A stretch of DNA of 64,000 nt from Verrucomicrobiota bacterium (GCA_021733945.1 JAIPJX010000008.1:12975-76974); one strand, 5' to 3'; numbered from the stretch's first letter, positions 24,354-56,703 are shown. Notes: generated from the sequence alone by a model not told the origin. Made by a program: numbers and translations.

Positions 24354-24393
24354 GGTGGTTCGTCGATTTTGGGGCAACGTGTTTCCCTCTGCA

Positions 24394-25959: not shown

Positions 25960-25970
25960 CAGGCGTCCGA

Positions 25971-25982
25971 GGCGGTAGGGTT
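25971..25982 (+). promoter_or_regulatory. ops/JUMPStart-like element GGCGGTAGGGTT
   Basis: Matches the enterobacterial RfaH ops GGCGGTAGnnTG at 9 of 10 defined positions. Lies on the non-template (+) strand in the 151-nt gap before the next gene, 1.6 kb downstream of the NusG paralog. Confidence 0.3.
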
Positions 25983-26110
25983 GTGTTGAAATCCGGATGA
26001 TCGATGGTCCTCGGGCATCGGTCCAAAAATCCGGAGCACCTTGGGAATGGGTATATTCCCGAAACTTCCATCGCAATTCGGAAACACCTTTGAATTATCT
26101 GAATCTATCA

Positions 26111-29926: not shown

Positions 29927-29948
29927 AATTCCCTGACTCCCCCTTTCG

Positions 29949-31591: not shown

Positions 31592-31601
31592 AAAGGCTCA
31601 G

Positions 31602-32603: not shown

Positions 32604-32611
32604 GGTTCGCT

Positions 32612-33274: not shown

Positions 33275-33314
33275 TCTGGCGGATGAGCGCACCCTCGATC
33301 ATGGGAAATTCCGT

Positions 33315-34583
33315 ATGAATGAGATCAAGGTGACGAAACGGACAACCTGCCGACTTTGCGAAAGCCCTCGCTTGGAACTGGGAGCTTCACTGGCACCCAC
33401 GCCGGTGGCGGAAAAATACGTTGCGAGGGACGAGTTGGATCTTCCGACTCCGGCTCATCCGCTGGATCTGTTCATTTGCCTCGACTGCGGGCACGTACAG
33501 CTCCTTTACGTGGTGGATTCGGAATACCTCTTTGATAATTACACCTACGTCAGTGGCGGTACGAAGTCCCTCGTTCAACATTTCGATGAATGCGCTGCGG
33601 CAACCATCGAGCGTTTCAAGATTGGAACCGACAGCCTCATTGTTGACATTGGCAGCAATGACGGATCTTTGCTTCGGTGTTTCCAGAGGCGCGGGCTACG
33701 GGTGCTTGGAGTTGATCCGGCGAAGGAGATCGCCCGGAAAGCCACGGAAGCTGGGATTCCGACGTTCCCTGCCTTTCTGACGCAGGAGCTGGCTGGAAGG
33801 ATTCGTCGTGAGCATGGCCCGGCTTCTGTGGTCTGCGCATTCAACGTGTATGCCCATGCTGATGCGCTCGGCTTAATGACGGAGAGCATTCGGGAGTTGC
33901 TGTCGCCCACAGGCGTGTTCGTTTTTGAGTTCTCGTATTTGATGGATATCTTCGATCGCATGCTGCTTGGAACAATATTTCACGAGCATCTGAGCTACCA
34001 TTCCTTAAAACCAATGGATTTGTTCCTGAAGAGGCATGGTTTGGAATTGATCGATGTCCAGCGCAACCTGATTCAGGGCGGTTCCGTTATCGGGACTGCG
34101 CAATTCATCGGGGGGCCCCATTTGGAGGCCCCATCGGTGAAGGAATCGCTGCGACTTGAAGAAGCCCGGAACATCGACAAACCGGAGACTCTCAAAATGT
34201 TTGCGGCGAAACTGCAGCAGGTCAAAGGCGAACTGGGGGGGCTGATCGCAGATTTCAAGAATCAGGGAAAATCAGTCTGGGGATACGGTGCCGCGCGGAG
34301 CGGAACGACGCTCATCGCTCAGATGAATCTCGGGGGAATTATCAGTCACATCGTCGACGATAGCCCGGACAAGCAGGATATGTTCAGCCCGGGTGACCAT
34401 ATCCCGATCCTGCCGGCGCAAGCACTCACAGAGAAAATGCCCGACTACGTTTTCATCTTGGCCTGGATTCACGCACCAAGCATTATTAGGAATAATCGGG
34501 AATACCTCGCAAAGGGTGGACGCTTCATACTTTGCTTTCCTGAGATTCAGATCGTGGGAGAAGAAGAGACGGGTGATCAATGA
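33315..34583 (+). CDS. NDP-hexose C-methyltransferase-like enzyme (TylC3-type layout)
   Basis: ATG 33315. N-terminal zinc ribbon CRLCES...CLDCGH, SAM motif VDIGSNDGS, and a C-terminal extra domain as in sugar C-methyltransferases. Confidence 0.65.
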   Translation: MNEIKVTKRTTCRLCESPRLELGASLAPTPVAEKYVARDELDLPTPAHPLDLFICLDCGHVQLLYVVDSEYLFDNYTYVSGGTKSLVQHFDECAAATIERFKIGTDSLIVDIGSNDGSLLRCFQRRGLRVLGVDPAKEIARKATEAGIPTFPAFLTQELAGRIRREHGPASVVCAFNVYAHADALGLMTESIRELLSPTGVFVFEFSYLMDIFDRMLLGTIFHEHLSYHSLKPMDLFLKRHGLELIDVQRNLIQGGSVIGTAQFIGGPHLEAPSVKESLRLEEARNIDKPETLKMFAAKLQQVKGELGGLIADFKNQGKSVWGYGAARSGTTLIAQMNLGGIISHIVDDSPDKQDMFSPGDHIPILPAQALTEKMPDYVFILAWIHAPSIIRNNREYLAKGGRFILCFPEIQIVGEEETGDQ

Positions 34584-35734
34584 ATCGATGCCTCGTGTGC
34601 CAAGGGTCGCGTGTCCGTCAGTTGGTGGACTTTGGAACGCAACCAATCAGTCATCATTTTCTTGCCGGCAGCGGCACGGCACGACGCTATCCGTTGGCAT
34701 TGGGGCAGTGTGACGACTGCTGCCTTGTGCAGCTGTTGGGTGTGATCTCCGCTGAGGAGCTGGTTCCTCAATTTGACTGGATTCGGTACAACGAACCGGA
34801 GTTTCATCTCGACGCAATGGTTGACTCCCTCTGCCTGCGACTTCCCCCTGGAGCGACGATCTGCGGTTTGAGTCATAAGGATGATTCGACACTCCGTCGC
34901 TTTCGTGATCGAGGCTTTGAGAATACCCATCGCCTCGATTTGGGAATTGCCGATCCGCGGGCAGGAGTGGAGACGATACAGGACAGATTAAGACCTGAGA
35001 ATCTTGACCTGCGGGAGCCCGTGGATCTTGTGGTTGCTCGCCATATCCTTGAGCATTCGCATAATCCTCTCGTATTTATGGGGGCATTGCGGAAGCTCAT
35101 CAAACCATCCGGGTATGTTGCAGTGGAGATACCCGACACCAGATTGCCGTTTGACCTGCTCGATTACACCGTTCTCTGGGAGGATCACAGTCTCTATTTC
35201 TCTGAGTCCACGCTTCGGGAGACTTTGAAGGTGGGCGGTTTTCAATGCGTCGCGGTCACCAGCTATTCCGCACGGTATGAGACTGCCGTCGTCGCAGTTG
35301 TCCGGCCTGGAGAAGGAGGGGGGTGGCTCTCAATGGATGGCGAGCGCGAGCGGGCAAATCGATTTGCGCAGGCCTACCCTAGGAGACGGAACGAGTGGCG
35401 TGAGCTCCTGACGAATCGTGGAAGAGTTGCGCTGTTTGGGGCGGGGCATCATGCATCCGTATTTACGAATCTGATGGGGGTCGCTGATCTGATCGAATTT
35501 ATTGTGGATGATTCGCCCAATAAATGTGGTTTGAGAATGCCTGGAACCGAACTTCCGATTGTCGGTTCGGAACGTTTGAGCGACATCGAAATGTGCCTCA
35601 GCAGTCTTGGTGATGGCAGTGAAAGGGCGGTTTTGGCACAGCTTCAGCCGTTTATTAGACGTGGCGGGATCTTCGCCTCGATTTTCCCGAGCAATCCCAA
35701 TTCTCCATTCACACTGATCGGAGGGGAACTGTGA
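34580..35734 (+). CDS. second, divergent C-methyltransferase-like enzyme
   Basis: 384 aa. CLVCQG...CDDCCL zinc ribbon, MT core, same three-part layout. ATGA overlap with the previous gene. Confidence 0.55.
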   Translation: MNRCLVCQGSRVRQLVDFGTQPISHHFLAGSGTARRYPLALGQCDDCCLVQLLGVISAEELVPQFDWIRYNEPEFHLDAMVDSLCLRLPPGATICGLSHKDDSTLRRFRDRGFENTHRLDLGIADPRAGVETIQDRLRPENLDLREPVDLVVARHILEHSHNPLVFMGALRKLIKPSGYVAVEIPDTRLPFDLLDYTVLWEDHSLYFSESTLRETLKVGGFQCVAVTSYSARYETAVVAVVRPGEGGGWLSMDGERERANRFAQAYPRRRNEWRELLTNRGRVALFGAGHHASVFTNLMGVADLIEFIVDDSPNKCGLRMPGTELPIVGSERLSDIEMCLSSLGDGSERAVLAQLQPFIRRGGIFASIFPSNPNSPFTLIGGEL

Positions 35735-36237
35735 AATCGGTCAACCCCGAGGTCTTTGTTTCGGAGGACCGTATTGTCACCGTTGGAGCCGCTCAACTCG
35801 AGACATTAAAGAAACAGGCTGCAAGGAACGCTCGAAGGCGTTGCAGGTTGTGCGCGCACAAGACTCCGCAGGATCGTCTCCACGAAATGTTTATCGTGTT
35901 GGCCCGGGGTATTTATATCCGACCCCATAAACATATTGGAAAGACAGAGTCCTTCCATGTCATTGAAGGGGCCGCTGATATTATCTTCTTCGACGACGTC
36001 GGTGGGATAGAAGAGGTTCTGCGTGTGGATTCTGCGGGAATCTTCTACTTTCGGAATGACGAGCCCCGTTTTCATACGCAGATCGTCATCACCGAATTTT
36101 TGGTCGTACACGAAATCACGAACGGCCCGTTTGATCGAACCGACACGGTTGGAGCGACCTGGGCTCCAGACGAATCCGATGTTGCGGCCGGAGCCGCCTA
36201 TTTGGAGTGTTTGAAACGCGATGTCGCACCGGTCTAG
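35731..36237 (+). CDS. WbuC-type cupin-fold protein
   Basis: 168 aa. ...CRLCAHKTPQDRLHEMFIVLARGIYIRPHKHIGKTESFHVIEG... Confidence 0.6.
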   Translation: MKSVNPEVFVSEDRIVTVGAAQLETLKKQAARNARRRCRLCAHKTPQDRLHEMFIVLARGIYIRPHKHIGKTESFHVIEGAADIIFFDDVGGIEEVLRVDSAGIFYFRNDEPRFHTQIVITEFLVVHEITNGPFDRTDTVGATWAPDESDVAAGAAYLECLKRDVAPV

Positions 36238-37090
36238 TTTAAGGTTTCTCGTGGTGGGCGCATCCGGGTTTATTGGATGCCATCTCATGCACCACATCCG
36301 TTCACGAGGTTTTGATGCCTTCGGGACTTCGTCGGCGACGATGAACCTGCTGACGGACCGGATTGCGGATGTTATCGGGGATTTCCGGCCGACTCATACA
36401 ATCATCGCCGCAGTTATCAGTAACATGGATCGCTGTCTTGCGGAGAGGGAGATGAGTTACAGAGTCAATGTCACAAACACGATACGCCTGATAGAGGATG
36501 TCAGAAGCATGGGCAGTCGACCGGTGTTTCTCTCAACCAATTTTGTCTTTGACGGTTCGGTTGGGTGTTACAATGAGGAAGCCCCCATATCTCCGGTCAA
36601 TGAATACGGCCGGCACAAGGCGGAAGTGGAGGGATACCTTCGAGCCAATGTTCCAGAAGGTTTGGTGACGCGGCTCTCCACGAATGTTGGAGACAATCCG
36701 GGGGAAGCGCATTTGTTTTCACAATGGTATCAATTACTGATCGAAAACAAGCCGATTGTCTGCATTGACGGCGCAATGATTTCCCCGACTTATGTTGAAG
36801 ATGTAGCGCATGCGCTTGTGACCTGCTGTGAGCGAAAGATAACGGGATTGTTTCATCTGGCTAACACAGAGAGTTTTTACAGGAATGATTTAGCTCTAAA
36901 GTTTTGCGATGCGTTCGGCAAGAAAGCGAATATCATTCGCAAGCCGCTAAGGGAATTTGGTTTCCTCGATAACCGTGCATTGAAGGCGGATCTGGACAGT
37001 TCCAAATTTGTTCACACGACAGGATTGAGCTTCACTCCAATGGGGGAAGTAATTCGAAGATTCATTGAAAACGTCCGGTTGAACCAGTGA
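36221..37090 (+). CDS. RmlD-like NDP-4-keto-sugar reductase (SDR)
   Basis: 289 aa. VVGASGFIG Rossmann, YGRHK. 17-nt overlap with the cupin gene. Confidence 0.65.
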   Translation: MSHRSSLRFLVVGASGFIGCHLMHHIRSRGFDAFGTSSATMNLLTDRIADVIGDFRPTHTIIAAVISNMDRCLAEREMSYRVNVTNTIRLIEDVRSMGSRPVFLSTNFVFDGSVGCYNEEAPISPVNEYGRHKAEVEGYLRANVPEGLVTRLSTNVGDNPGEAHLFSQWYQLLIENKPIVCIDGAMISPTYVEDVAHALVTCCERKITGLFHLANTESFYRNDLALKFCDAFGKKANIIRKPLREFGFLDNRALKADLDSSKFVHTTGLSFTPMGEVIRRFIENVRLNQ

Positions 37091-37216
37091 TTTATTGAAT
37101 TTTGTGGCCTGAATCCCACGAAGCCATGGATGTCACCGGATCTTTCGTGGTTCTCGATTCGTCCATGCCGGGGTGATCGGCTTGACGGGGCCCGTGTGGT
37201 TCGAATACAAAAAACT

Positions 37217-37924
37217 ATGCCTGATGTGTTGATTACGGGAACAAGCAGCGGTTTGGGCTTGGAATTCGTCCGATCCATGGCGGCCGAGGGTTGGAGGATC
37301 ATTGCAACCTGCCGAAATCCTTCGGACGCCCTTGCGCTCAAGGGAGTTGGTGGAGACATTCGAATTCGCCCGATGGATGTTTCAAGGACGGAACAGATCA
37401 GGGCCGTTGCAGGTGAATTTTCCGGTGTTCCTTTGGATATGGTGATCAACAATGCCGGAACCCATGGCCCACGGGATGCCAGTGGGACTTTTGGCGACAT
37501 AGATGTCGAAGCGTGGATCGAGGTTCTTCGGGTCAATGCGATCGGGCCAGCGAAGGTTGCCGAGGCGTTTCTTCCGAACATCCGACTTGGTCGGATGAAG
37601 AAACTCGTCTTCGTGACAAGTCGTGCCGGGAGTATTTCGGAACGGGGTAGCCTGCCTCACATGAGGCGCGGCGGACCTTATATTTACCGGACAAGCAAGG
37701 CTGCCGCGAACGCCGCCGCTAAAGCAATCGCGTACGATCTGCAACCGGAGGGAATCAGCGTTGTGGTTTTGCATCCGGGGTGGGTGAAGACGGAGACCGG
37801 TGGGTGGGATGCGCCCGGTGACCCGGCCATCAGTGTTGCTGGAATGCGAAAGGTAATCGATTCAGCCTCGCCCGCGGACAACGGAATTTTTCGAAATGTG
37901 GACGGAGCCCCGATTCCATGGTGA
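37217..37924 (+). CDS. classical short-chain dehydrogenase/reductase
   Basis: ATG 37217. TGTSSGLG and YRTSK motifs. Confidence 0.75.
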   Translation: MPDVLITGTSSGLGLEFVRSMAAEGWRIIATCRNPSDALALKGVGGDIRIRPMDVSRTEQIRAVAGEFSGVPLDMVINNAGTHGPRDASGTFGDIDVEAWIEVLRVNAIGPAKVAEAFLPNIRLGRMKKLVFVTSRAGSISERGSLPHMRRGGPYIYRTSKAAANAAAKAIAYDLQPEGISVVVLHPGWVKTETGGWDAPGDPAISVAGMRKVIDSASPADNGIFRNVDGAPIPW

Positions 37925-38134
37925 CGACAAAACCGGGGTTATGATGATAGGTGCCGATAAGTGACAAAATTCAAGAATTTAGGAGCAATCCTCTGTGTGA
38001 GTTCTCGTGTTCGGAGACATGGTGCGAAACCGTTGCTCGCGCAGGCCGATGGACATGCAGCCGGCGGGGCGATCAGCTCCTGCCTGGCTCTGCGAACGTG
38101 TCGATGGGGCTCATGCTTTGGACGGAAAAACCGA

Positions 38135-38196
38135 CCCTCTTCTAAGAGGGGATGGATGCCTGATGCATCCTTGCACCGGGGCGGCGAGCCCGCCCC
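38135..38196 (+). other. three adjacent stem-loops in a 372-nt non-coding gap
   Basis: CCCTCT-tcta-AGAGGG (38135-38150), GGATGC-ctgat-GCATCC (38154-38170), GGGGCGG-cgagc-CCGCCCC (38178-38196). None is followed by a T-run. Confidence 0.4.
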
Positions 38197-38296
38197 AATC
38201 GACGTGAGGGCGGAAGCAGTCGAAAACACGGAGGATTGGCATAACTCGATATTGCAGGCAGGTTTCCGAGATTGAGGCGCTTTGGGTTGATTAAGT

Positions 38297-39559
38297 ATGG
38301 AAAAGAATTCCCAGTTTTCGCATGGTCTGTTTACCGAGGTTGAGTGGGCGCAGACGCCAGAGGCGATTAGACGATTTGTTCAAGGATTGACGGATATGGC
38401 GAGGTTTTCCCAGATGGAAGCTGAAGTCTTTCGTCAGGAAGCCGTAAAAATGGCAACTGTTGCGTCGCGACGGAGTCGGGTTCCGGAGGAAGTGGTTTTC
38501 GTGGCCGATCGTCCCGGAATGAGGGTGAACAAGTTCGCATACGGTTTGAAACAGATCGGCTGGCGGGTGATCCTTCTGCACAGGGAGGCTCCAGATTTCG
38601 ATCCTTCCCAGCACTTTGTCGGTGTGCATCGGTACGCGAATCAATGGCAAGCGCTCGCAATCGCTTCGAGCTATTCCCCAGCGGCGTATCATTTGTTTTC
38701 AAGTTGGAATTTCGAGGTTGCCTCCACATTCATTCAGTGCAAACCAGGAAAAATTGTTTTTGAAACCTGGGACCTGGCGAATGGAATGCTCAAGGAAGAT
38801 TTTGCGGCCGGGATGAAAGAGGGCATAAAACTGGAACGGTTCTGTCTTGAAAATGCAGATGGAGTAAGTTGTCGCGGTTTGCATACTCAGTATTTGAAGC
38901 GAAACGAGGGATTCAAATTTCGGAAGAGGATCCTGTTTCCAGACTATTGCTGGGCAAAACCGAGGCAAGGAATGACTCAGGAAAAGATGTCGGACGGGAT
39001 CCACGCGGTTTATCTGGGCAATTTGCAGATGGACCCCAATCATCCTGCCGGCTTTACGTATCGTTTGGCGGAGCAGTTGAGCAGAAACGGAGTGCACTTT
39101 CACATTTATCCGTCCTTCCCGAATCAGGCGACTCAGCTCCGCACGGTCATGACCGAGTATTTCAAGGGAGCATCGGTTCCTGAACTTGTCCATATTCACG
39201 AGAAGGTTCCGTCTGACAGATTGACGGAGGAATTATCGAAATACCATTTTGGGATTTTTGTCTCGTCGCAGACAGAAGGTCTCCGGACTGACAACGATGC
39301 CTACCATCCGCGTTTCAATGAATACGTGACGGCGAACAAGGTGTTCGACTACATTGACGCAGGCCTGTTTGTGCTGGCCCAGAATGGGCGCTGGCTGCGG
39401 CGTGTCATCGGTCAGTATGGGAATGGGAAGACAGTGAAAACCATGGAGGATATTGTGCATCTTTGTAAAACCGAGCCGCTGAGGCACATTCCCGTTCCGA
39501 GGGGATATACCCTCCAGGCGAATGTGTCCCGTTTGGCGAGTTTTTATTCCTCTCTCTAG
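38297..39559 (+). CDS. hypothetical protein, possibly a GT-B-fold glycosyltransferase
   Basis: 420 aa, codon-plausible ORF. Rossmann-like VVFVADRPGMRVNKFAYGLKQIGWRVILLH. No canonical GT motif that I can name. Confidence 0.35.
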   Translation: MEKNSQFSHGLFTEVEWAQTPEAIRRFVQGLTDMARFSQMEAEVFRQEAVKMATVASRRSRVPEEVVFVADRPGMRVNKFAYGLKQIGWRVILLHREAPDFDPSQHFVGVHRYANQWQALAIASSYSPAAYHLFSSWNFEVASTFIQCKPGKIVFETWDLANGMLKEDFAAGMKEGIKLERFCLENADGVSCRGLHTQYLKRNEGFKFRKRILFPDYCWAKPRQGMTQEKMSDGIHAVYLGNLQMDPNHPAGFTYRLAEQLSRNGVHFHIYPSFPNQATQLRTVMTEYFKGASVPELVHIHEKVPSDRLTEELSKYHFGIFVSSQTEGLRTDNDAYHPRFNEYVTANKVFDYIDAGLFVLAQNGRWLRRVIGQYGNGKTVKTMEDIVHLCKTEPLRHIPVPRGYTLQANVSRLASFYSSL

Positions 39560-39772
39560 CGAAGCGGTTCGGTGTGATTCTGTTTTACAACGAAAGACGA
39601 ACGGGTTCCTCCAAAATGACCCAACCGGAGGGAAGAATCGGTTCGAATATCGGAGCAACTGGACCTCCTGCGAGCTCGATCCTCGATCGATTGGCGCTTC
39701 GGAAGCGTTGCCCCTCTCGCAAAGCGGTGGGGTCCGCCAGAAAAATGACTTAGGAACGAGTTACCGACGATC

Positions 39773-40855
39773 ATGAGCGAGAATACAGATTTGTTGATTC
39801 ACATTGGGCAACCCAAGACGGGTACGACGACGCTGCAGAGCTTTTTCAAGCTCAATGCAAGCTTTCTGAAAAAAAACGGAGTTTGTTTTCATCTCCTCGA
39901 TGAAAACCACGATCGCACCTATATCGAAGCGGCCCTGCGAAGGGAAATGTATGGAAAGGATGGGGTTGACCGGGTCACGGCGTTGATCTCGAAGATCGCA
40001 GCGCGAAGAGGTTGCACGCATGTGCTAAGCGACGAGGCTCTGTTCATTGCGCCGAGACTCGCTGGAACGGTTCGTGACATCGTCGCAGGGGTATCTCCGA
40101 CAATGTCTGTCAAAGTTGTCGTCTACCTGAGAAGGCAGGATCAGTGGTTGAGTTCGCTTCACGCAGCAAACATCAAAAACCCGCATGTGTATACGACCGA
40201 AGTGCACGGCCGGAGACTCAGTCAGATTCTGACCGACTTCGAGCTCTTTTCAATACCGGAGATTCCGCTGGACTACTATCATATCATTGAGGAATGGAGT
40301 CGCGCATTTGGGGCCGAGAATCTCATTGTCAGAGTGTACGAAAAGGAACAGCTGAACGGTGACATTATTGAGGATTTTCTGCGAAACGTTTTAAAATTAA
40401 CGCTGACCGGGGAATGTTCAGTGCCGGGGAACCAGAACATCAGCCTGCCTGAAGTCTGTACCGAAATCCTCCGGATCTGCAATGACAGCGGTTATTTTAA
40501 AAAAACAGAGGATATGCGTCAGAATCAGGAGCTTTTTGCGCGAATAGTCCTGCCGAGACACAGGGAAAGCCGAATATTTGATCTGACCCCTGTTCAGCGA
40601 CGAAGAATTCTCGAGAAGTGCGCCCAATCGAATGCAGCGATTGCGAGAAAGTACCTGCATCGGGATGACGGAATTTTGTTCCATGAGCCAGTTGGGGAAG
40701 CGCGTGATGCCAAGGGCAACTCGGAGCTGAAAATTGAGGACATTGTGCAGCCCCTTGTATTCGCGCTAGGGCAGCAGCGGAATGAGATCGAGGCGATCAA
40801 ACGGCAGTTGTTCGAAATCATAAGGTTTTTGCAGGCCCAGACACGAACTCCATGA
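39773..40855 (+). CDS. sulfotransferase-like protein
   Basis: 360 aa. 5'-PSB-like IHIGQPKTGTTTLQSFF and 3'-PB-like VVYLRRQDQWLSS. Confidence 0.5.
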   Translation: MSENTDLLIHIGQPKTGTTTLQSFFKLNASFLKKNGVCFHLLDENHDRTYIEAALRREMYGKDGVDRVTALISKIAARRGCTHVLSDEALFIAPRLAGTVRDIVAGVSPTMSVKVVVYLRRQDQWLSSLHAANIKNPHVYTTEVHGRRLSQILTDFELFSIPEIPLDYYHIIEEWSRAFGAENLIVRVYEKEQLNGDIIEDFLRNVLKLTLTGECSVPGNQNISLPEVCTEILRICNDSGYFKKTEDMRQNQELFARIVLPRHRESRIFDLTPVQRRRILEKCAQSNAAIARKYLHRDDGILFHEPVGEARDAKGNSELKIEDIVQPLVFALGQQRNEIEAIKRQLFEIIRFLQAQTRTP

Positions 40856-41048
40856 TATCCGGTATGATAATTCAGTCCGTGACGAGCGCAGCCAGGCAGC
40901 ACTCGCGTTTGAGCAGGGTGAGATTGGTTAAGGCGCGACGGGATTCGCCGACAATGCGATGGGCGGGTCGGTACCCTCGTGCTGGACGTGACCATATGGT
41001 GCGTTGCGAACCCATGTATTGATATAGAATCGGAAAGGCTAATTTTTC

Positions 41049-44000
41049 GTGAAAACACCAACAACGGACAACAAGCCAGCGATCTCCCGAATCGCTGGAA
41101 ACAAAGCGCCTCGCTTCAGCTTTGTGACGATCGTGCTCAATGGAATGCCATTTATCGAGCACGCACTCAAGGCCGTGTACGCATTCGCTCATGAGATTAT
41201 TGTAATCGAAGGGGCTGTTGAGAATTGTCAGTTCGCTGCAAATTCTGACGGTAGCTCGCGGGACGGAACCGTGGACTGCATACGGAATATGCCGGATCCA
41301 AGCGGCAAGATTCGGCTGCTGCAGGGTAAATGGCCGGAAAAATGCGAAATGCAGAATGCCGCTCTGGCGCATGTTACCGGCGATTACGTGTGGTTGATGG
41401 ATTCCGATGAAATATACCGGAGCGAAGATTTGGAAAAGATCCGCGAAATGATTCAAGCGGATCCTTCGATCACACAAGTGAATTTTATTCCGGACAATTT
41501 CTGGAGGGGGTTTGATTACATTTTTATTTCGTCCGAATTCTTCAAAGCTCCCCACCATTATCGAAGGTTGTTTCAATTCAAACCGGGAGCGCGGTTTTTG
41601 ACCCACCGTCCACCGACGATGCTTCTTCCTGGTGCGGACCGGTCTACCGAGCAAATGAAATGTGTGGGAGGTGATATTACTCGAGCGATGGGAGTGATTC
41701 CTTACCATTACAGTTATGTTCTCGAGAGTCAGGTGAAGCAGAAGATCGAACTTTACAATCGATACGGCTGGGGGGCGATGTGGGGCGTTGATATGAACCT
41801 TTGGTTGAATGAAGGGTTCCTTCAGTGGACCCCGGAGAATCGACGAGAGCTCGAGAAGAGGTATCCACCTTGGACAGGTGACAGGGGGTCCTTCACAGTT
41901 CCTTTCACAAAAGAACACCCGGAGGTGATGAAGGATTTTATTGCCGAATTTCGCGGCAAGGCTGAAAAGCGAACAGTTTTTCGAATACCGGATGAAGACT
42001 TGTTGATGCCTGTGATCGGAGACCCTTACTATTTGGAGAGGGTTCTGGAGGCCTGGAATCATATTGAATTGGACGCTCCTTTGCGGGGGCGTCAATCCAC
42101 CATTCGGAAGCATTTGACCAAAGGGACTTCCTTTTGGAACGTTCATGTGGGAATTGCGTTTCTTGCGAGCAGGCTCAAACCGCGGCGTTATCTCGAGATC
42201 GGTGTGCGGACTGGCGGGTCATTCGTTCAGGCCCTCTATAATGCTCCAATTGAGGAGGCAGTGGCAGTCGATATGTGGGCCGGCTCGTATTCGGGTCTCC
42301 CGAATACCAAGGATTATACGGTTTCTCAAATCGATCGGTTCCAAACGGAAGTGCGAAGGATTCCCGAGATAAAATATATTCACGGAAACAGTCATGTTGA
42401 GCTCAAGAAGCTGATTGAGGCGAAGTGCAGATTTGATCTGATCAATGTGGATGGGGACCATACGGAAGCTGGGGCGATTGAGGATTTGGAGGACGCTGTG
42501 CGACTTTTGAATCCTCGTGGCGCGATTGTGTTCGATGATGTGATCCATGTTTCGTTTCGCTTTCTTTTGGATGTAGCCAAACAGTTCGTCGAACGTCATC
42601 CTGAATTCACGCTCCTTTTAAATACCAGCCAGGATAACGGAACGGCCCTTTTTGTTCGTGGCCTGGCATTGGAGGAAATTCTTGCACCCCGGGAGGCGGT
42701 TCGGAAGCGCCCGAAGATTGCCGGCGAGGTGAAATCGGATCACGATCTGACCGCCGTTGGCAGCGAATCGGAGTTCAGCCGGAGTATTGGTCAACTCTTT
42801 GAGAAGATCAGGCCGCAGAAACTGATTGAAACCGGCACTTATTTGGGTACAGGAACCACCCGGACCATTGGGAATGCACTGAAGGAATTGGGGTGTGATG
42901 GCGCGGTCTTCTTTTCGATCGAAGTGAACCCGCGACATTTGAGCCAGGCATACGCCAATCTCGAGGCGGATGGATTGATGTCGAGGGTCCGGCTGTGCCA
43001 CGGTTTGTCAGTACCCCGTTCGATTCTGCCGAGTATTGAGGAGATTGAGGCGGCGACCGTAAGAAACATACAATCGGAGGAGATTTTTGTTGATCATCAG
43101 GAACATGAACGCGCGGCCCTTTATTACAGGGAAACGTGTTTTGAGGGGGTGCCTGATGATCTTTTGGGTAGATGCCTTGGGGAATTCAATTGCAGGCCTG
43201 ATTTTGTCATTCTTGACAGCGGAGGGCATTTGGGAAATGTGGAATTCAACTACCTGATCGAACGTCTTCAGGGCGAGTGTCATATCGCTTTGGATGACAT
43301 CTACCACATCAAACACAACCGAAGCTATTTGCAGATTCTGAATGATCCAAGATTCGAATTGGTTGTGTCTTCGAAGGAAAAGTTTGGGTTTTGCATTGCA
43401 AAATTCAGCCCCAAAGTCCAGGCGGAACCTAGGGTTCAGAGCGTGTTCTGGGTAAGACCCGATTCGATTGGGGACGCTGTTCTGTCGCTTTCTCAGCTTC
43501 CCTATATACGGGGCAAATACCCCGATGCCAGGATTGTCGTGTTGTGCCAGGAGCACGTCGCCGAGCTCTATGAGGCGAGTCCGTATGTGGACGCGATCGA
43601 GACGATCCGACAAGCGGACGCCCTCTCCAACAAGGAGTATCAAGCGCGTCTGGTTCAGCGAGTTCGAGCCGTTCAGGCTGATGTCTGCCTGAATCCGGTT
43701 TATTCCCGTGACCCGCTAAGCGATTTTCTTGCACTCAACTCGAACGCTCCGACCCGCGTTGCCTTTGAAGGGGGTGTTGAGAACATGATGCCCGAGGTGC
43801 GAGATCACCATAACCGACACTATACGAAACTGATTCCGAACAGGTCCAAATGGAAGGGTGAGTTGGAGAGGAATCGTGATTTTCTTCAGGGCATCGGAAT
43901 TGAGGTTTCCGAATTGGGTGCATTGATCTGGCTGAACAACGAAGATCTTGAATTTGCAGAGGATGTATTCAGAGCGAATCAACTGGATCCGAACAGAACG

Positions 44001-45227
44001 ATCGCCATGTTCGCGGGGGCTCAGCACGATTGCAGGCACTATTTGGGGTACGGAGAGGCGCTGAAGGAGATTTGCCGGGAGCGGGGTCTTGTCGTGGTCG
44101 GGTTGGGGGCGAAGCGGGATTTTGAAATAAACCAGAAGAATCTGGAAGCGACGGGTGCACCCGGGCTGAATCTTTCGGGCAAGATGACTCTGCGTCAAAA
44201 TGCTGCATTTCTCAAGAAATGCAGGCTGGCAGTGGGAGCGGAGACGGGACTGGCACACATTGCCTGTGCGGTCGAGGTGCCAAACGTGATACTTCTTGGT
44301 GGCGGGCATTTTGGAAGATTCATGCCGTATTCAGCGTTGACCTCGGTTGCGTGCCTTCCGCTGGAGTGCTTTGGCTGCAATTGGCAGTGCCGATTCTCTC
44401 GACCTCATTGTGTCAAGGATCTGCTGCCGGGAGTGATTGAGGCCGCGGTTCGGCGGACGCTGGATTCAAAATCGCAAAAGCCCAGGATCTTTGTGCAAGA
44501 CGATTCCATGCTGTCTCCCGGACCTGGCACTCCTGGATTGGGATCCTTCGATCAGCTCATTGATTCCGGCCGGGTCGAGGTGTTGATTGTAAATAGGGAA
44601 TCCGGTTCGGTTTGTTCAGGTAATTCCGGGATTCGGACTCGTGGAAATGAAGCTTCGATTCTGGAGCTGCTCCAGACTGCTGAAAGCCTCTATCGATCCG
44701 GAAAGACACAGGATGCGGTGGAGCATCTCAAACAGGCGAATTCGAATTACCCTGGTTCGGCTCAAATATTGGCGACTCTTTCGAATGTTCTTCTTCAAGC
44801 GGAAGATTTTGCCGGTGCTGAGCCTCGACTAAAAGAGTGGTTGAAGTTGCAGCCTCAAGATGCGAATGCATGGACCGGATTGGCTGTTGCGAAAAGCAGA
44901 CTTCAGGATCGTGAGGGATGCAAACAGGCGCTGAATCGGGTTCTTGAACTGGAACCTCGTAATCAGGGGGCTTTGCGATTGCTGGCGGACAATCTGCTGA
45001 TTGAAGGAGATTACCGGGCTGCAGGTGAGTTGTATGCGAAAATGCTCGAAGCGACGCCCGATGATCTCGATCTACTCGTGCGACGGGGCGTATGCCTTTT
45101 TAGGGCTCTGGAATACGACGCTGCGGCTTCATTTTTTGATCGTGTGCTCAAAATTGATCCGAATCATGGGTTGGCTACAGAGAATCGTGAAGCTGTCGAC
45201 CTGGCAAGGGCGATTCGTAAGGTATAG
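41049..45227 (+). CDS. multidomain GT2 - methyltransferase - methyltransferase-like - GT9 (heptosyltransferase-like) - TPR protein (1392 aa)
   Basis: GT2 (~41100-41950: FSFVTIVLNGMPFIEHAL..., LMDSDE). MT (~42130-42660: LEIGVRTGGS..., NVDGDH). Second Rossmann/MT-like domain (~42790-43410: LIETGTYLGTGTT). GT9 (~43430-44470: VFWVRPDSIGDAVLSL..., LSGKMTLRQNAAFLKKCRLAVGAETGLAHIA). TPR (~44660-45227). GTG start. Confidence 0.75.
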   Translation: MKTPTTDNKPAISRIAGNKAPRFSFVTIVLNGMPFIEHALKAVYAFAHEIIVIEGAVENCQFAANSDGSSRDGTVDCIRNMPDPSGKIRLLQGKWPEKCEMQNAALAHVTGDYVWLMDSDEIYRSEDLEKIREMIQADPSITQVNFIPDNFWRGFDYIFISSEFFKAPHHYRRLFQFKPGARFLTHRPPTMLLPGADRSTEQMKCVGGDITRAMGVIPYHYSYVLESQVKQKIELYNRYGWGAMWGVDMNLWLNEGFLQWTPENRRELEKRYPPWTGDRGSFTVPFTKEHPEVMKDFIAEFRGKAEKRTVFRIPDEDLLMPVIGDPYYLERVLEAWNHIELDAPLRGRQSTIRKHLTKGTSFWNVHVGIAFLASRLKPRRYLEIGVRTGGSFVQALYNAPIEEAVAVDMWAGSYSGLPNTKDYTVSQIDRFQTEVRRIPEIKYIHGNSHVELKKLIEAKCRFDLINVDGDHTEAGAIEDLEDAVRLLNPRGAIVFDDVIHVSFRFLLDVAKQFVERHPEFTLLLNTSQDNGTALFVRGLALEEILAPREAVRKRPKIAGEVKSDHDLTAVGSESEFSRSIGQLFEKIRPQKLIETGTYLGTGTTRTIGNALKELGCDGAVFFSIEVNPRHLSQAYANLEADGLMSRVRLCHGLSVPRSILPSIEEIEAATVRNIQSEEIFVDHQEHERAALYYRETCFEGVPDDLLGRCLGEFNCRPDFVILDSGGHLGNVEFNYLIERLQGECHIALDDIYHIKHNRSYLQILNDPRFELVVSSKEKFGFCIAKFSPKVQAEPRVQSVFWVRPDSIGDAVLSLSQLPYIRGKYPDARIVVLCQEHVAELYEASPYVDAIETIRQADALSNKEYQARLVQRVRAVQADVCLNPVYSRDPLSDFLALNSNAPTRVAFEGGVENMMPEVRDHHNRHYTKLIPNRSKWKGELERNRDFLQGIGIEVSELGALIWLNNEDLEFAEDVFRANQLDPNRTIAMFAGAQHDCRHYLGYGEALKEICRERGLVVVGLGAKRDFEINQKNLEATGAPGLNLSGKMTLRQNAAFLKKCRLAVGAETGLAHIACAVEVPNVILLGGGHFGRFMPYSALTSVACLPLECFGCNWQCRFSRPHCVKDLLPGVIEAAVRRTLDSKSQKPRIFVQDDSMLSPGPGTPGLGSFDQLIDSGRVEVLIVNRESGSVCSGNSGIRTRGNEASILELLQTAESLYRSGKTQDAVEHLKQANSNYPGSAQILATLSNVLLQAEDFAGAEPRLKEWLKLQPQDANAWTGLAVAKSRLQDREGCKQALNRVLELEPRNQGALRLLADNLLIEGDYRAAGELYAKMLEATPDDLDLLVRRGVCLFRALEYDAAASFFDRVLKIDPNHGLATENREAVDLARAIRKV

Positions 45228-45517
45228 TCTCTGGGTGCGACCGCCGCAGCCGAGTCATGCGATGTGCGAACGGGAACTCCGCCAGTCGGCGCATCCTGAG
45301 GTGGCCTAGAATCGTGATGGGATCCACCTCTTTCAACAATTCATTCGATGCTACTCGTGGAGCCGTGACATCCTTGTCCACCGAGGTTCGCGGGGCGGGC
45401 GGCAAAGTCGATGGTGGAAAACGGTGGGTATCTCCTTCCTGCGGAGTATCGCCTCCGGAAACGGGTGGTACGGGTTCCGGAAGCAGCAGGGGGATAGCAC
45501 AGCCGAGCTCGTTCGCT

Positions 45518-48500
45518 ATGGATAAAAAATGCCAGTCACGTGGCCCACTTGTTTCGGCCATTGTGTCGACGTACAATTCGGAGGGGTATCTTCGCGGGTG
45601 TTTAAGGGACTTGGTGGGGCAAACGCTTTTTGCCCAGGGGAAACTTGAGATTTTCGTAATCGACAGCGGGTCCCAGCAGAACGAAGGCAGGGTGGTTGAA
45701 GAGTTTCAGAGGCAGTTTCCGAGTATTCGTTATCTCCGAACGGAGCGGGAGCCGATCTACGCCGCCTGGAATCGCGCGATCCCCCTTCTGTCCGGCAAGT
45801 ACATCACGAATGCAAACACGGATGATGCCCATCGGGCGGATGCGCTGGAATTGCTCGCGGCGGCGTTGGACAGGTTTCCGGAGGCCGGGCTGGCGTACGG
45901 GGATTTTGTAAATTCATCGGTTCCAAACGATTCGTTTGACGACCCGCACGTTCTCCGCGAGGTGCGGTTTCCAGCCTATGAACCGAGCGATGTGCTTTTT
46001 TACTGCCCCATCGGGTGTCATCCGATGTGGCGGAGGGATGTGTTCGAGCAACTCGGAAATTTCGACCCCCGGCACTGGTCGGTGGGCGATTACGAATTTC
46101 TGCTGCGGTTTGTGGATGCCGGGATGATCGCTGTCCGTGTTCCGGAACTGCTGAGCCTCTTCTTTGAGAACCCGTCCGGAATCCAGTTCAAATCGGCCCA
46201 GGAGACCTACCAACAGTTTCTGAATGTAAGACACGAGTATCGCATCAAGATCCCGGTCGAAAAGATCTACGAAGCGGATCCGGCGGATCCTTCGGCGATT
46301 GCCAGAGCCTGGGTAGCTCTGGGGAACAAGGCGATGCATCATCGGATCCCGTGGTTTCCCAATCCGGCATCGGAGCTCCCGTATGCCGAGTTCTGTTACC
46401 GGCGGGCTCTCGAGGCATGTCCCTCCTTCATGCCGGCTCTCCGGAATTTGTGCGTGTTGTGGAGCTTGCAGAAGGAGGAAACGAAGGTTGCCGGGCTTTT
46501 GCTGAGATTGCCTTCCGGGACGGCTACGGAGGTTAAGAGTAAACTGGAGACCGAAGGGCTCAGGCTGGTTCATGTGGACGTCGTTCCGAAAGGTCAGACT
46601 CTGAAAGCGGAGGGATCCGAGCCCCACCCTTCCGCTCCGAAAGAGGTGGCGGCTCGACGAGCCGAAGTAATGGATGGGCAGAGCCCCGGGTTCAAGAATG
46701 CCCCGCAGAGTCGCGAACGGTTTCGGATTCTCCTGACCCTGGATGATCGAGGTGAGGGGCGGGTCGGCGCGTTCGGTCCCGGAGTTGTTGCGGAGGAACT
46801 CGTGCGACGGGGGCACGATGTCTCGGTGCTGTATGCCGCTGGCACCCATCCCTCGTCGCGGACTCCATACTTCCTCGAAGAAACAACGTCGCCGGGTGGG
46901 GTGCGCCTGTTTGGCGTGTACAACGGTCCCGTGACAGGGTGCGATCCTGAGAATCCGGATCGGGAAACGCTGGACCCGGAAATGATCCGGTGTTTCGGCG
47001 AGGTGATCGAGCGCTGCAAACCGGGCCTCGTGCATTTCCATACCTTCCAGGGATTGACTTTGGCGCTCGCCGCCGAGGCGAAACGGAAGGGGTTGGTGAC
47101 AATTTACAGCCCGCACAATTATCACCTGATCGATCCGGCGCTTTACCTGTTGGGGGCTGATCTCTCGGCGTGGACAGGGACGGATTTTTTCCGAAACTCG
47201 GAATGGGTGGCGCGTCGCCCCGACCTGCGCGGGGCCTACGCCCGACGTGCTGAAGCAGGCCGGGCGGTGTTGAACGAGCATTTGGATCTGACTCTTGCCG
47301 GTTCGTATCGTGCCCGCGACCTGTTTGAGGACTTCTGCGGTCGGCACGGCCGGATTGCCGTCGTTCACCAGGGTTACCCAGGTTCGGAGAGGGTGCCTGG
47401 CGAGGTTGGGGGCGAGTCGGGTCGGACGGGGCCGCTGAGAGTGGGGTTCCTGGGGCCGATCGTGCCTCGCGAAGGGCTGCATATTCTGGCCGCTGCCCTT
47501 CAGCGTGTATCCCCGGGCGGTGTGGAGGCCCATGTGTTTGGAGTGGTTGATGCCGCCTACAAGGAGCAGGTGATGGCGGTTGATGGGCGGCGGGTAATCC
47601 GTTGGCGGGGGGCCATCGAACCGGAGGCCCTGGGGGCAATCGCGAAGGAAACGGACTTGGTCGTGGTTCCAAGCCTCTGGGAAGCGGGAGCAGGGTCGGA
47701 GATTGTCGATGCATTGGCCATGGGGCGTCCGGTGGTCGCTGCGCGAATCGGGAGTGCGGCCGATTTTGTTGTTGATGGGTTTAACGGGCGCTTATACCGT
47801 AGTGATTCGATCGACGAATTGGCAGAAATCCTGGAGGAGCTGGTTCGCGACCGAGCTTTGGTTGAGCGGTTGAGCAGGAACTGTCGGCTGCCCCATGCGT
47901 TTGGAGACTATGTTGATCACGTTGTTTCGATTTATCACAGATTGCTCAAGGGCGAGCGAGTCCTTCCCGGAACCGCCTCCCTGGTTTTTCCGAGCTCTCC
48001 AACCAAGCCTCTTCCGCAGTCTGAGCCCGCAGGCGGGGGAGCCGCATCGGCTCCCGCCGATTTAGCTGAAGCCATGCACCACCCGCTCGACCTGCTGTTT
48101 GCCCGCGCTTCCTCCGATCTTGAATCTGGAAATTTGGCGGCTGCACGAAATGTTCTGATCGAAATCCTGGCACAGGCGCCGGACAGCTTCGAGGCCCGGG
48201 TCTCGCTCGGTTCGGTCCTGTTTCATCTGGAGGATTTTGAGGGGTCCTGGGTGCATTACGACCGGGCGCTGAGCCTCAAGAAGGACGATGCGGGCCTTTG
48301 TGTTCAGGCGGCCCTGGTGTGTCTCAAGCTTGGACGCATGAGTGACTTCGAACGGGTGATCGAACTAGCTCTGAAACTGGAGCCGGAGCATGTGGGCGCC
48401 CTGAAACTCCTGGGTGATCTCAACCTTCAGGAAGGGCGCTTTGCGGATGCTGGCCGGTGTTACTCCAGAATACTGAGCCGGGAACCCGGGAACTGCGATA

Positions 48501-51500
48501 TCCTGATTGCTTTGGGTGTGTCCTTCTTCAAGGGGGGGGACCCGGAGATGGCGAAGGCGGTTTTCGGGCAGGTGCTGGTGCGCGAACCGGAGCATGCTCT
48601 GGCAAAGGAGAATCTGGAGGTGATTCGACGGAGCATGGAGCAGGGGGCCGGCTCCGGCGCGCCTGTTCCTCAGGCGGCTCCTGAGGAGGTTGATTCCGCC
48701 GCGAAAGAAATTCTGGAGTTGATCGAGAGCGCCGATCGTCATTTTGAGGAGGGGCGGTACTTTGATGCGAAGGAACACCTGCTGAAGGTGCTTCAGCTGA
48801 GATCCGACGACATTCGGGCACTGACGTCGCTGGCCGCCGTGGCCGATGCCCTGGGCGATGTGGCTGGGTCCCGACATTATCTGCAGGAGGCTCTGCGGGT
48901 GAAGGGCGAGGATGCGGATCTTTATTTGCAGTGGGCTCTCGTGGAACTGAAGCAGGATGATGTTGAGCGGTTCGAGGAGTTGTTGGCCAAGGCCTTTGCA
49001 GTGGATCCCAAACATCACGCCTCTCTCAAGCTCCTTGCCGATCTGAATTTTCGGAGCGATCGCCTGAAGGCCGCAGCGGAGTCCTACACGACGATTCTGA
49101 CGCATTACCCCGACGATGTGGAGGCGATGGTTTCCCTGGGGGCCTGCTTCATGAACGATGGAGATTTGGAGACCGCGCGGATGGTGTTGACACGGGCGTT
49201 GGAGCTGGATGCGAGCTGCGCCAGTGCGAAGGAGCATCTCGAAACCATTGCCAGCCGGCTCGGCGACACGGGGGCCCGTCCCGGAGCGAGTGGTTCGGCC
49301 GTTGATTCGCAGGACGGGCCAAAAACTGCGCCGGAGACGATTCAACCAGCGGTTTCCAAAAAGAAGAACTCGGAGCGGGTCCAGGACCTGGTGGATGAAG
49401 CTGATTTTTTCAGCGAAGTGGGAAACCTGGAAGCATCGCTTGAGACCCTGGAACGGGCTTTGGAACTTGCGCCCCGGGACATGGGCCTGCTTTCGGCGGT
49501 GGGCAGCCTGCACTATACGATGGGGGACTACGAGGCTTCGCGCGCGAAGTTTCGGAACGTGATCGAATCCAGACCCCGGGATCCGGAGGCTTACACGAGA
49601 CTGGCCATGGCGTGCCTGCGGCTGGATCGGATCGAGGAGATGGAGGCGGCCCTGGGCATTGCGTTGGAGATTGATCCGGAAAACCGGGAGGCGCTCAAGT
49701 TTCTTGCGAAAACAAATCTGGAGGCGGAGCGGGTCCGGGACGCCGGGCGCGCCTATGCAAAACTTCTGGAGGAGCAGCCCGATGACATGGAATCGCTCCT
49801 GGCGCTGGGGTTGTGTTTCTTCAAGGGCGGGGATCTTCCGGCAGCGCGCATGGTGTACGGCCGGGTGTTGGAGTATGACGCGGAAAATCCGACGGCTGTT
49901 GAGAATTTGGCCCAGATCGACGCCAGGGAGAATCGTTCAACCCCAAAAAGAGGGAAGTCCGAAGCAGAGGAAGCCAGGGAACGTTCCGGGAAGGTGAATG
50001 AATTGATGGCTGCGGCCGAGGGGGCGTTCAAGGCCAAGAACCTGCCAGCCGCGAGGGATGCGTTGAAGAATGCCGTTGAGCTGGCTCCCAATGCGATCGA
50101 ACTCCTGGCTGCGTTGGGAAGCCTCCATTTTCAACTGGACGAAATGCCCGAGGCGCGCGAGGTGTTGTGCCGATTGGTGGAGCTGGCTCCGGCGGAACCC
50201 GCCAAATGGGTTCAGCTGGCTTTGACGCACTATCAGCTGAACGAGATTGAGGACTTCGAGAAGGCGCTGAAACGGGCTCTGGAATTGGATCCGGATCATT
50301 TCGAGGCGTTGCGCTTGTTGGCGCACATGAGTTTCAAGCATGGAAACTTCCGGGACGCAGCGCAGACGTATGGTCGCATCCTGAAGCGGGCTCCGAACGA
50401 CGTGGAGATTCTGTCTGCCTTGGGAGTTTGCTTTTTCAAGGGCGGGGACATGGATGCCGCCGGCATGATGTTTGAGAAGGTTCTCGAAGTGGAGCCCGGA
50501 AACGCGATCGCGACCGAAAACCTGAGCGTCATCGAAAACCGGAGTGCAGGCAATTCCGCAGGAGCGTTGCCGAGTGTTTCGAATCCCGGGAATGAGGGGG
50601 AAGGTGGCGCTTCCGACGAACCTGCATCGAAGCGCATGGAAAGGGTCGATGAGTTGCTCGTGGATGCGGACAGGTGCGCCACCAGCGGGGATGTTTCCGG
50701 CGCGTGTGATCGGTTGAGGAAGGCGTGCGAACTTGAGCCCGAAACCCATGAGATTCATGCTGCCCTGGGCAGCTTGCTCTACCAGCTTGGGCAGTGGGAC
50801 GCGGGGGTCGCGTCGCTCAAGCGCGCCACGCAACTGGCTCCGAATTCCGCCGATTACCACACGCGGCTCGCGATCAGCCTTCTGTCCGTGGATAGCGTCG
50901 GCGAGTTTGAAGAAGCCCTGCAAAAGGCCCTGACCCTTGATCCCAGCCACCGGCCGGCTCTGCGGTTGCTGGCGGATCTGAATCTTCGCGGAGGTAATTT
51001 CAAGGACGCGGCACACACCTATCACCGGTTGCTTTTGCAGACACCCGATGATGTGGATGTCATGCTTCCGATGGCGGTGTGTTTCTACAAGAACGGGGAT
51101 CCGCAGGCTGCGCGAATGGTTTTCAACCGGATCCTGACACTCGATCCCGAGCACGCCATCGCGCGTGAGAATCGGGATTTGCTGGATCGTGAGGAAGCGG
51201 GTTCGGGTGCTGCAGGCGCTACATCCGGGGGAAGTGTCCCGACCGTGGCACCGGCCTCTGTGGCTGTGCCGGCGGTTGGAAAGGTTTCGGTGCTCTGGGA
51301 GGGATCCCAGTTTGTTCATCATTCACTGGCGCTCGTGAATCGTGAGCTCTGTTTCCAGTTGCTGCAGATGGGCCATGACGTTTCGATCCTCCCTTACGAA
51401 CCGGACCAATTCGGGGCGGAGATGGATCCGCGATTTGTGCGGCTGGCGGGGGCGGTCCGGGCGCCCCTTTCAAAAGCGCCTGAAATCCACCTGCGCCATC

Positions 51501-55633: not shown

Positions 55634-55680
55634 GGACGAACGGCAGGGGCATCAGGTTAAAACTGAAAAAATCTTGATGA

Positions 55681-55714: not shown

Positions 55715-55717
55715 GCG

Positions 55718-56653: not shown

Positions 56654-56703
56654 ATGGTCAGGCAGGAAAAGGTTTTATGGGTCAGGCGGTTTCTCCCGGA
56701 TGG

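Follow-up and report, generated by a model that had tools for sequence, protein, structure and literature searches.

What would a soluble protein build that carries two glycosyltransferase domains, two methyltransferase-type domains and a tetratricopeptide repeat (TPR) module, and on which acceptor would it build it? The question is raised by open reading frame (ORF) A, which is encoded in a 64,000-nucleotide stretch from an uncultured freshwater Verrucomicrobiota bacterium (GCA_021733945.1, JAIPJX010000008.1:12975-76974; hereafter the window), and which is followed by a giant ORF, ORF B, with five further TPR modules. The answer that we favor, and consider probable, is that ORF A works in the cytoplasm as a multi-enzyme encoded by a flagellin glycosylation island, and that it extends and methylates an O-glycan on flagellin before export.

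The island occupies about 32 kb, lies wholly on the plus strand, ends in ORF A and ORF B, and sits between fliW and two flagellin genes on one side and flgL/flgK on the other (Table 1), so that the flagellar setting implied by the original prediction, which a model had made from the DNA sequence alone, is real. The genes fliF to flhF occupy 1.6-21 kb of the window, with an FlhA that is 91% identical to FlhA of a Verrucomicrobia metagenome-assembled genome (MAG), and the convergent genes beyond the island are flgL, flgK, flgN, flgI, flgH, flgA, and rod genes. No membrane segment was found in any island protein, and neither a flippase or polymerase (Wzx/Wzy) nor an ABC transporter, lipid-carrier transferase or phosphoglycosyltransferase was found among the island proteins. 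Because flagellar genes flank it, its products are soluble, and it has no transporter or lipid-carrier genes, the locus is, judged by its gene content, a flagellin glycosylation island of classic layout, and the two short flagellins are its presumed substrates. The island proteins scanned gave no Pfam or NCBIfam match to a Maf (DUF115) domain or to the pseudaminic/legionaminic acid (Pse/Leg) pathway.

Domain composition of ORF A

That ORF A is a genuine gene, and no product of chimeric assembly, follows from its recurrence: four independent JGI contigs carry a copy with 99.4% nucleotide identity, and window positions 38000-57000 are matched without differences on a 66.8-kb contig of a lake-water metagenome run. 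Aquatic metatranscriptome contigs span both ORF A and ORF B and show them to be transcribed, with the proviso that DNA carry-over in such a library is possible. The product is soluble, with zero transmembrane segments predicted, and its domain order is retained in more than 40 homologs from other phyla. The domain searches and structure predictions that the original prediction had proposed as a check were run, and they returned matches for both the glycosyltransferase family 9 (GT9) and the methyltransferase (MT) domains; all five of its domain calls were borne out by Pfam, AlphaFold2 (AF2), and Foldseek, including the uncertain second methyltransferase-like domain. The domains for glycosyl transfer and for methylation thus reside, as it had claimed, on a single polypeptide, in an architecture that is conserved across phyla.

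The glycosyltransferase family 2 (GT2) domain matches PF00535 with 42.9-45.3 bits against a cut-off of 23.3, and its DxD motif, LMDSDE, contains D118-x-D120-E121, which is invariant in an alignment of 12 diverse homologs. With a length of about 300 amino acids and 60-67% identity across phyla, it is the best-conserved module of the family. A profile of the GT2 family searched against the PDB found the GT-A enzymes SunS (5.6e-5), GalT1 (8e-4), and GmaR (0.024), and the analysis delimits a highly conserved 300-amino-acid GT2 subfamily that is unnamed and uncovered in current domain libraries.

The first methyltransferase domain, MT1, matches PF13578 over residues 382-498 (E 2e-15, 58 bits against a cut-off of 26.3), and it holds the glycine-rich S-adenosylmethionine (SAM) motif LEIGVRTGGS together with DGDH. 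The domain that follows, domain X, has no match above the Pfam threshold; the closest model, Methyltransf_24, scores 15.8 bits where 26.3 are required. A profile built from 24 domain X homologs nevertheless found catechol-O-methyltransferase (COMT) and YrrM/TrmR in the PDB at E 4e-4, and the AF2 model of the domain, with a mean predicted local distance difference test (pLDDT) value of 90.1, retrieved only class I O-methyltransferases among its top 50 Foldseek matches, including TrmR, COMT, Rv0187, and SafC (E ~2e-8, probability 1.00, template modeling (TM) score 0.5-0.63). On the strength of these profiles and of the model, domain X is a separate family of predicted class I methyltransferase fold without a Pfam model, outside current domain libraries and now defined. 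Its invariant motifs are ETGTYxGxGTT, SIE, FVDH, and LLDSGGH, and of these ETGTYxGxGTT, E70 (of SIE), and D127-H128 (of FVDH) align with motif I, the ribose-binding Glu, and D141 of COMT, respectively; since the motifs line up with the COMT sites for SAM, ribose, and the first metal-binding Asp, domain X may be catalytically competent. It is 52-62% identical across phyla (73 homologs), and in nearly every homolog that has both domains it lies upstream of GT9, in most of them directly adjacent. That domain X nearly always precedes GT9 suggests that the two form a functional GT9+MT pair.

The GT9 domain matches PF01075 over residues 955-1109 (E 1.6e-14, 54-57 bits against a cut-off of 22), and its sequence matches in the PDB are WaaF and 3TOV. 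Its AF2 model has a pLDDT of 91.5, and Foldseek ranks 1-9 are taken by 3TOV, WaaF, and WaaC, with E values of 1e-17 to 1e-12 and TM scores of up to 0.82. Next after the bacterial heptosyltransferases come subunits of the chloroplast NDH-PSI supercomplex (9GRX chain 1, 7WFF chain a, 7F9O chain 6), and from this direct succession a GT9-like fold would be common to both groups.

Two more specific assignments of the GT9 domain were considered and rejected. The first was orthology to the lipopolysaccharide (LPS) heptosyltransferases I, II, or III (WaaC, WaaF, WaaQ), for which the NCBIfam equivalog models scored 50.5, 47.5, and 36.4 bits against cut-offs of 185.3, 134.6, and 170.2 bits; all NCBIfam LPS-heptosyltransferase equivalogs together gave 34-50 bits against cut-offs of 134-569, and as these cut-offs are missed so widely the domain is not regarded as an LPS heptosyltransferase ortholog. 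The second was membership in the TibC/AAH (BAHT) group. TibC ranks 39th and lower in Foldseek (E ~2e-6, TM ~0.48), and the cysteine spacing and the lack of a preceding β-barrel in the model also contradict membership. The cysteines in question form a CX2CX3CX6C knuckle in the C-lobe (C1107, C1110, C1114, and C1121), all four of them invariant in 78 of 78 homologous GT9 domains, and the knuckle is likely to be a structural metal site. Model confidence for GT9 drops at this knuckle. A similar Cys motif near the C terminus may be present in many GT9 proteins.

The TPR module of ORF A and its counterparts in ORF B

The original prediction held that ORF A ends in a TPR module homologous to the five modules repeated in the next protein, and the alignments agree. 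The ORF A module aligns in register with each ORF B module (BLASTP E 1e-19 to 1e-30, 26-30% identity), the ORF B modules are 29-39% identical among themselves (residues 947-1123, 1152-1331, 1366-1555, 1574-1760, and 1761-1977), and a multiple alignment of all six has no gaps in the module core, which includes the capping helix 'A-x-E-N' with its invariant Glu. These comparisons confirm, at the level of sequence, that the ORF A module belongs to the same family as the five of ORF B, by an old duplication given the 26-30% identity between the proteins and the 29-39% within ORF B. The description of the module as a clear sixth copy therefore stands for family membership and falls for a recent duplicate of the ORF B modules. 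A recent copy of any one ORF B module was rejected, as the ORF A module is equally near to modules of other organisms, with identities of up to 37%.

An exhaustive search with a profile of the six modules returned 632,317 TPR matches at E <=0.001. In the best 150 of these, as ranked by the six-module profile, in-register arrays of two to seven module copies in multi-glycosyltransferase proteins match the ORF A module with 97-110 bits and 30-37% identity, compared with less than ~65 bits for generic TPR arrays, so the module family can be separated from generic TPRs. The profile itself lies near the TPR consensus: in the PDB it matches TPR proteins designed from the consensus best, and the TPR domain of eukaryotic OGT next. 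In other proteins the module arrays mostly accompany GT4 domains and GT2 domains of the type found at the C terminus of ORF B (53-80% identity), the latter being their most frequent catalytic partner. Two Firmicutes genomes, one of Eubacteriales and one of Eisenbergiella, encode homologs of this C-terminal GT2 some 200 bp behind flagellin genes; they are the two informative loci among four in a genome scan with the ORF B C-terminal region. Beside its C-terminal GT2, ORF B has another TPR region that is unrelated to the module. ORF B opens with 102 codons rich in Gly, Ser, and Arg that its database representative lacks, as the latter starts at residue 103 (MDKKCQ...), and the true start is probably 45563 (residue 103), which would leave a gap of ~335 nucleotides behind ORF A.

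It is plausible from the alignments that ORF A and ORF B bind a common partner through the module, as had been proposed, and the ligand specificity of the copies could also differ. If the partner is flagellin, the module would be the part that targets the catalytic domains to protein, and this is supported by the precedent of FlmG, whose TPR domain is a flagellin-binding part needed for glycosylation (PMC7591256). A different role would be docking between enzymes, with the ORF A module contacting the ORF B array or itself, and with flagellin bound elsewhere, for example by the C-terminal GT2/TPR region of ORF B. The two genes follow one another on one strand and the metatranscriptome contigs cover each of them, the separate TPR region of ORF B lies beside a GT2 of flagellin-locus type, and in another Verrucomicrobiota MAG a single polypeptide with one module unites parts of ORF A and ORF B, which suggests a split protein that needs to re-associate. 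We nevertheless think docking unlikely, as TPR domains usually bind extended peptides and not each other, arrays of two to seven modules exist in proteins without an ORF A-like partner and in TPR-only proteins, and the FlmG precedent is one of substrate binding.

The partner of the modules might instead be FliW, FliS, FlgN, or the FlhA gate, as a chaperone, regulator, or export component of the flagellum, and glycosylation would then be coupled to the order of secretion. The position of fliW directly upstream of the flagellins and of flgN downstream of the island would fit such a role, and the weak NCBIfam similarities of the module include TPR-type chaperones (LcrH/SycD, SctY); these similarities, however, are generic to TPRs and far under the cut-offs, docking of a flagellin glycosyltransferase on FliW or FlgN has no known example, and the sole tested precedent, FlmG, binds flagellin, so that we regard a chaperone partner as improbable.

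Relatives, strain variants, and the genes of the island

Parts of ORF A are shared with 112 database proteins, in which the domains act as shuffled modules: GT2 is present in almost all, MT1 is optional, and one protein alone, the near-identical P0001, has the TPR module. Of 19 genome loci with ORF A relatives, 8 have flagellar genes within 10 kb, and seven of these eight core ORFs carry TPRs. An island next to flagellin or flagellar genes recurs in the loci L013, L004, L011, and L014, the first of which belongs to the other Verrucomicrobiota MAG mentioned above and has the order flgK-flgL-fliW-flagellin (the flagellin 60% identical to that of the window), followed by a single 3455-residue protein. 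This protein contains a GT9+module unit (37% identical to residues 797-1373 of ORF A) with a single module, and it also holds the N-terminal GT2 of ORF B, a GT4, and the C-terminal GT2/TPR region of ORF B; ORF A and ORF B would therefore be a split and rearranged version of one ancestral-type megaprotein. TPR-less forms of 1240-1253 residues, from Geomonas paludis and from a groundwater contig, are encoded in Wzm/Wzt ABC-transporter loci without flagellar genes, which also hold UbiA-type and many GT2 genes. The presence of the TPR thus tracks the type of locus (with it at flagellar loci, without it at Wzm/Wzt loci), which supports its role as the targeting part.

The same TPR-less homologs are an argument that the locus makes a free or lipid-linked polysaccharide, or modifies LPS, with ORF A acting as its Geomonas homologs presumably do and with its flagellar position being incidental, since glycan loci of the Wzm/Wzt type encode proteins with 45-49% identity to ORF A, and characterized GT9 enzymes are mostly LPS heptosyltransferases. 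We give this little probability, because the island is without a transporter, flippase, polymerase, lipid-carrier transferase, or membrane protein, it has flagellar filament and junction genes on both flanks, its arrangement directly after flagellin is repeated in L013 and in Ignavibacteria loci, and the GT9 domain misses the NCBIfam LPS-heptosyltransferase cut-offs by far (34-50 versus 134-569 bits).

Strain-to-strain variability of gene content, which is expected of a flagellin glycosylation island, is present. In the sister-strain contigs compared (L020-L023), ORF A is 99.4% identical in nucleotides and 99% in amino acids, with sharp breakpoints exactly at 41032 and 45228, the borders of the gene, so that it resembles a cassette that was either exchanged recently or conserved strongly. 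Upstream of it, the sugar cassette at 24654-41032 is swapped for one of 8 kb with a sulfotransferase, methyltransferases, and a DegT aminotransferase; downstream, the N-terminal GT2 of ORF B (45228-46777) is replaced and an extra 415-residue GT2-like gene is inserted. From 46777 on, ORF B including its five modules has 97.4% DNA identity, and the module array has 96% amino acid identity. FlaB is 98.7% identical as a protein, the flagellin/RfaH-like region has only 88.6% DNA identity, and the HldE-like enzyme is shared by the two island variants at 60.7% amino acid identity, whereas most other sugar genes are not retained. An independent run displays the same cassette joint. From these swaps, the fixed parts would be flagellin, ORF A, and the TPR scaffold, and the variable parts sugar synthesis and some catalytic modules.

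With flagellin as the acceptor, glycosylation might proceed as follows. The soluble island enzymes would supply activated sugars, one of them a product of the HldE-like kinase/nucleotidyltransferase, and ORF B, probably through its C-terminal GT2 of flagellin-locus type, would initiate O-glycosylation of both short flagellins in the cytoplasm before export. The GT2 and GT9 domains of ORF A would then each add one sugar to the glycan, and its two SAM-dependent methyltransferase domains would methylate sugars. The ORF A TPR module would direct this catalytic core to protein, either by binding unfolded or chaperoned flagellin or by joining a flagellin-bound ORF B scaffold. In this scheme we infer the flagellin acceptor, the order of the steps, the donor sugars, the methylation of sugar rather than of protein, and the partner of the TPR. 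That a flagellin-modifying enzyme extends and also methylates its glycan is supported by the glycosyltransferase-methyltransferase fusion of Clostridioides difficile, GT2 CDR20291_0242, which is a precedent on flagellin (PMC5207246).

Several points weigh against flagellin as the target of ORF A. Flagellin glycosylation in this organism is a prediction from gene content, and the other 11 of the 19 related loci have no flagellar gene within the available flanks. The TPR-less homologs of the Wzm/Wzt loci are 45-49% identical over GT2-MT-X-GT9, and because these closest TPR-less homologs sit in ABC-transporter polysaccharide loci, the catalytic core would not be protein-specific by itself. GmhA and GmhB, which belong to the heptose pathway, were not found in scans of the island proteins. 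The invariant residues of the module are mostly those of the TPR structural consensus, and, with the module as a whole near that consensus, a shared ligand is not readable from sequence. Finally, the TPR domain of FlmG is N-terminal, and its glycosyltransferase, as described, is a different one.

A more ambitious version of the scheme, which we offer tentatively and consider doubtful, is that ORF A and ORF B form an assembly line, in which the six TPR modules hold one or more unfolded flagellins and about ten catalytic domains build a multiply methylated oligosaccharide without releasing intermediates. Gain of the TPR would then have been the switch from lipid-linked to protein glycans, and cassette swaps between strains around a fixed TPR scaffold would diversify the flagellar glycans.

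The remaining island genes bear on the sugars that would be used. In addition to an RfaH-like gene and the HldE-like kinase/nucleotidyltransferase, the island has epimerases/dehydratases, a split transketolase, an alcohol dehydrogenase (ADH), a kinase, one methyltransferase, two C-methyltransferases, RmlD-like and short-chain dehydrogenase/reductase (SDR) genes, and unknowns. The split transketolase and the C-methyltransferases suggest a C-methylated sugar with a modified chain or a C-branch, and such a sugar would be out of the ordinary in a flagellin glycan. The glycan may also be sulfated: a protein encoded directly upstream of ORF A has faint sulfotransferase similarity (Table 1), and the variant island has a clear Sulfotransfer_3 protein (L020, 4753-5397).

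The RfaH-like factor may sustain transcription through the 32-kb operon. The RfaH ops element GGCGGTAG occurs exactly once, at 25971-25978, where the HldE-like gene is followed by an epimerase gene; this was rejected as evidence, because chance alone should place an 8-mer about twice in 64 kb. Promoters and terminators predicted over 38-57 kb were no more numerous than in shuffled sequence, and a terminator-like hairpin lies at 55696-55710, behind ORF B.

Two ORFs of the flagellar cluster were noted in passing. One, of 1007 residues (7660-10683), is without an NCBIfam match at E <=1e-5; from its place between fliJ-like ORFs and flgE, it might encode a flagellar protein particular to the lineage, for example a long hook-length protein. 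The other, of 431 residues (14067-15362), has FliP homology limited to residues 234-429, and its first ~230 residues are unexplained, with a FliO/FliN fusion or a mis-set start as possibilities.

Table 1. Features of the window around ORF A, in order of position (aa, amino acids)
Feature	Position	Strand	Basis or remark
fliW	21173-21625		just upstream of the flagellin genes
Two short flagellin genes, 270 and 272 aa	21971..23636	+	22-23% Ser+Thr
Island sugar-nucleotide/modification genes	23814..41032	+	
RfaH/NusG-paralog gene	23814-24353	+	heads the island, directly behind the flagellins
HldE-like bifunctional enzyme	24322-25959	+	reversed order: nucleotidyltransferase, then PfkB kinase
Transketolase divided into an N-half and a C-half gene; two C-methyltransferases of zinc-ribbon type	27118-28880 and 33189-35734	+	
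360-aa protein	39773-40855	+	directly upstream of ORF A; faint sulfotransferase similarity, E ~0.1
ORF A, GT2/MT/MT-like/GT9/TPR fusion, 1392 aa	41049..45227	+	GTG start
ORF A GT2 domain, aa ~20-310	41106..41978	+	PF00535, aa 66-150, E 6e-11
ORF A MT1, Methyltransf_24 type, aa 341-555	42069..42713	+	PF13578
ORF A domain X, COMT/YrrM-like class I methyltransferase fold (predicted), aa 556-795	42714..43433	+	profile, AF2, Foldseek
ORF A GT9 domain, heptosyltransferase-fold GT-B, aa 796-1150	43434..44498	+	PF01075, AF2, Foldseek
ORF A Cys4 knuckle, C1107-x2-C1110-x3-C1114-x6-C1121, GT9 C-lobe	44367..44411	+	conservation
ORF A TPR module, aa 1197-1384	44637..45200	+	TPR match aa 1207-1380; five TPRs and capping helix
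ORF B, giant protein: GT2, GT4, five TPR modules, two GT4, then GT2 and TPR	45257..55633	+	
Five consecutive TPR modules of ORF B, ~185 aa each	48095..51187	+	
C-terminal GT2 of ORF B	53999..54676	+	TIGR04195 SunS-like match
flgL and flgK	55718..58140	-	convergent with the island, its far border

Comparison with known glycosylation systems

A literature search found no experimental work on any member of the ORF A family, but each of its elements has a known counterpart. FlmG of Caulobacter crescentus has a TPR domain that binds flagellins in a bacterial two-hybrid (BACTH) assay and that is needed for efficient glycosylation (PMC7591256). By description, it is similar to ORF A in being a cytoplasmic enzyme of the flagellar regulon that combines TPRs with a glycosyltransferase domain of the GT-B fold, but it is a 596-residue protein with N-terminal TPRs and one catalytic domain that transfers pseudaminic acid, whereas ORF A has a C-terminal TPR module and four catalytic domains, and its island has no nonulosonic-acid pathway. 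The GT2 of C. difficile type B flagellin modification, CDR20291_0242, contains a methyltransferase domain that is proposed to methylate the rhamnoses added by its glycosyltransferase domain (PMC5207246). It resembles ORF A as a fusion of a GT2-family enzyme with a SAM methyltransferase and in the position of its gene downstream of fliC, and it differs in having one glycosyltransferase domain, one methyltransferase domain (PF08241), no GT9, and no TPR, compared with the Methyltransf_24 and COMT-like domains of ORF A.

TibC and AAH are GT-B enzymes related to heptosyltransferases that glycosylate protein in the cytoplasm and carry a Cys4 metal 'finger' in the C-lobe; in TibC this is an iron finger formed by C339, C342, C358, and C370, in a dodecamer of subunits with a β-barrel N-domain (PMC4358343). 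The GT9 domain of ORF A likewise has four cysteines in the C-lobe, though with different spacing (CX2CX3CX6C). In both sequence and fold its best matches are WaaC/WaaF and other GT9 proteins (2H1H, 1PSW, 3TOV), and the ORF A island contains an HldE-like gene. Unlike WaaC and WaaF, the ORF A GT9 is part of a soluble fusion of 1392 residues, is encoded at a flagellar locus, and has the invariant CX2CX3CX6C; its acceptor is presumably a protein-linked glycan, in contrast to the Kdo-lipid A that is the acceptor of WaaC/WaaF.

Multidomain enzymes of ABC-transporter-dependent polysaccharide pathways, of the WbdA/WbdD type, also place several glycosyltransferase and methyltransferase activities on long soluble polypeptides, and they act on undecaprenyl-linked glycans and require an exporter. 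The ORF A island differs from these in having neither a lipid-carrier transferase nor a transporter, and in the addition of the TPR module.

The scale of the system is unusual, with about ten catalytic domains distributed over two polypeptides and built around a repeated 185-residue TPR module, and the locus provides a first view of flagellar glycosylation in Verrucomicrobiota. If the module is indeed a substrate-targeting element, it would provide a portable rule for redirecting glycan-building enzymes to proteins, which would be useful for glyco-engineering. Taken singly, flagellin glycosylation islands, TPR-targeted flagellin glycosyltransferases, and glycosyltransferase-methyltransferase fusions are already known. 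What is new is their combination, namely the size, the 185-residue module common to two adjacent megaproteins, and a catalytic core that has the TPR where flagellar genes are nearby and lacks it where the locus is one for polysaccharide.

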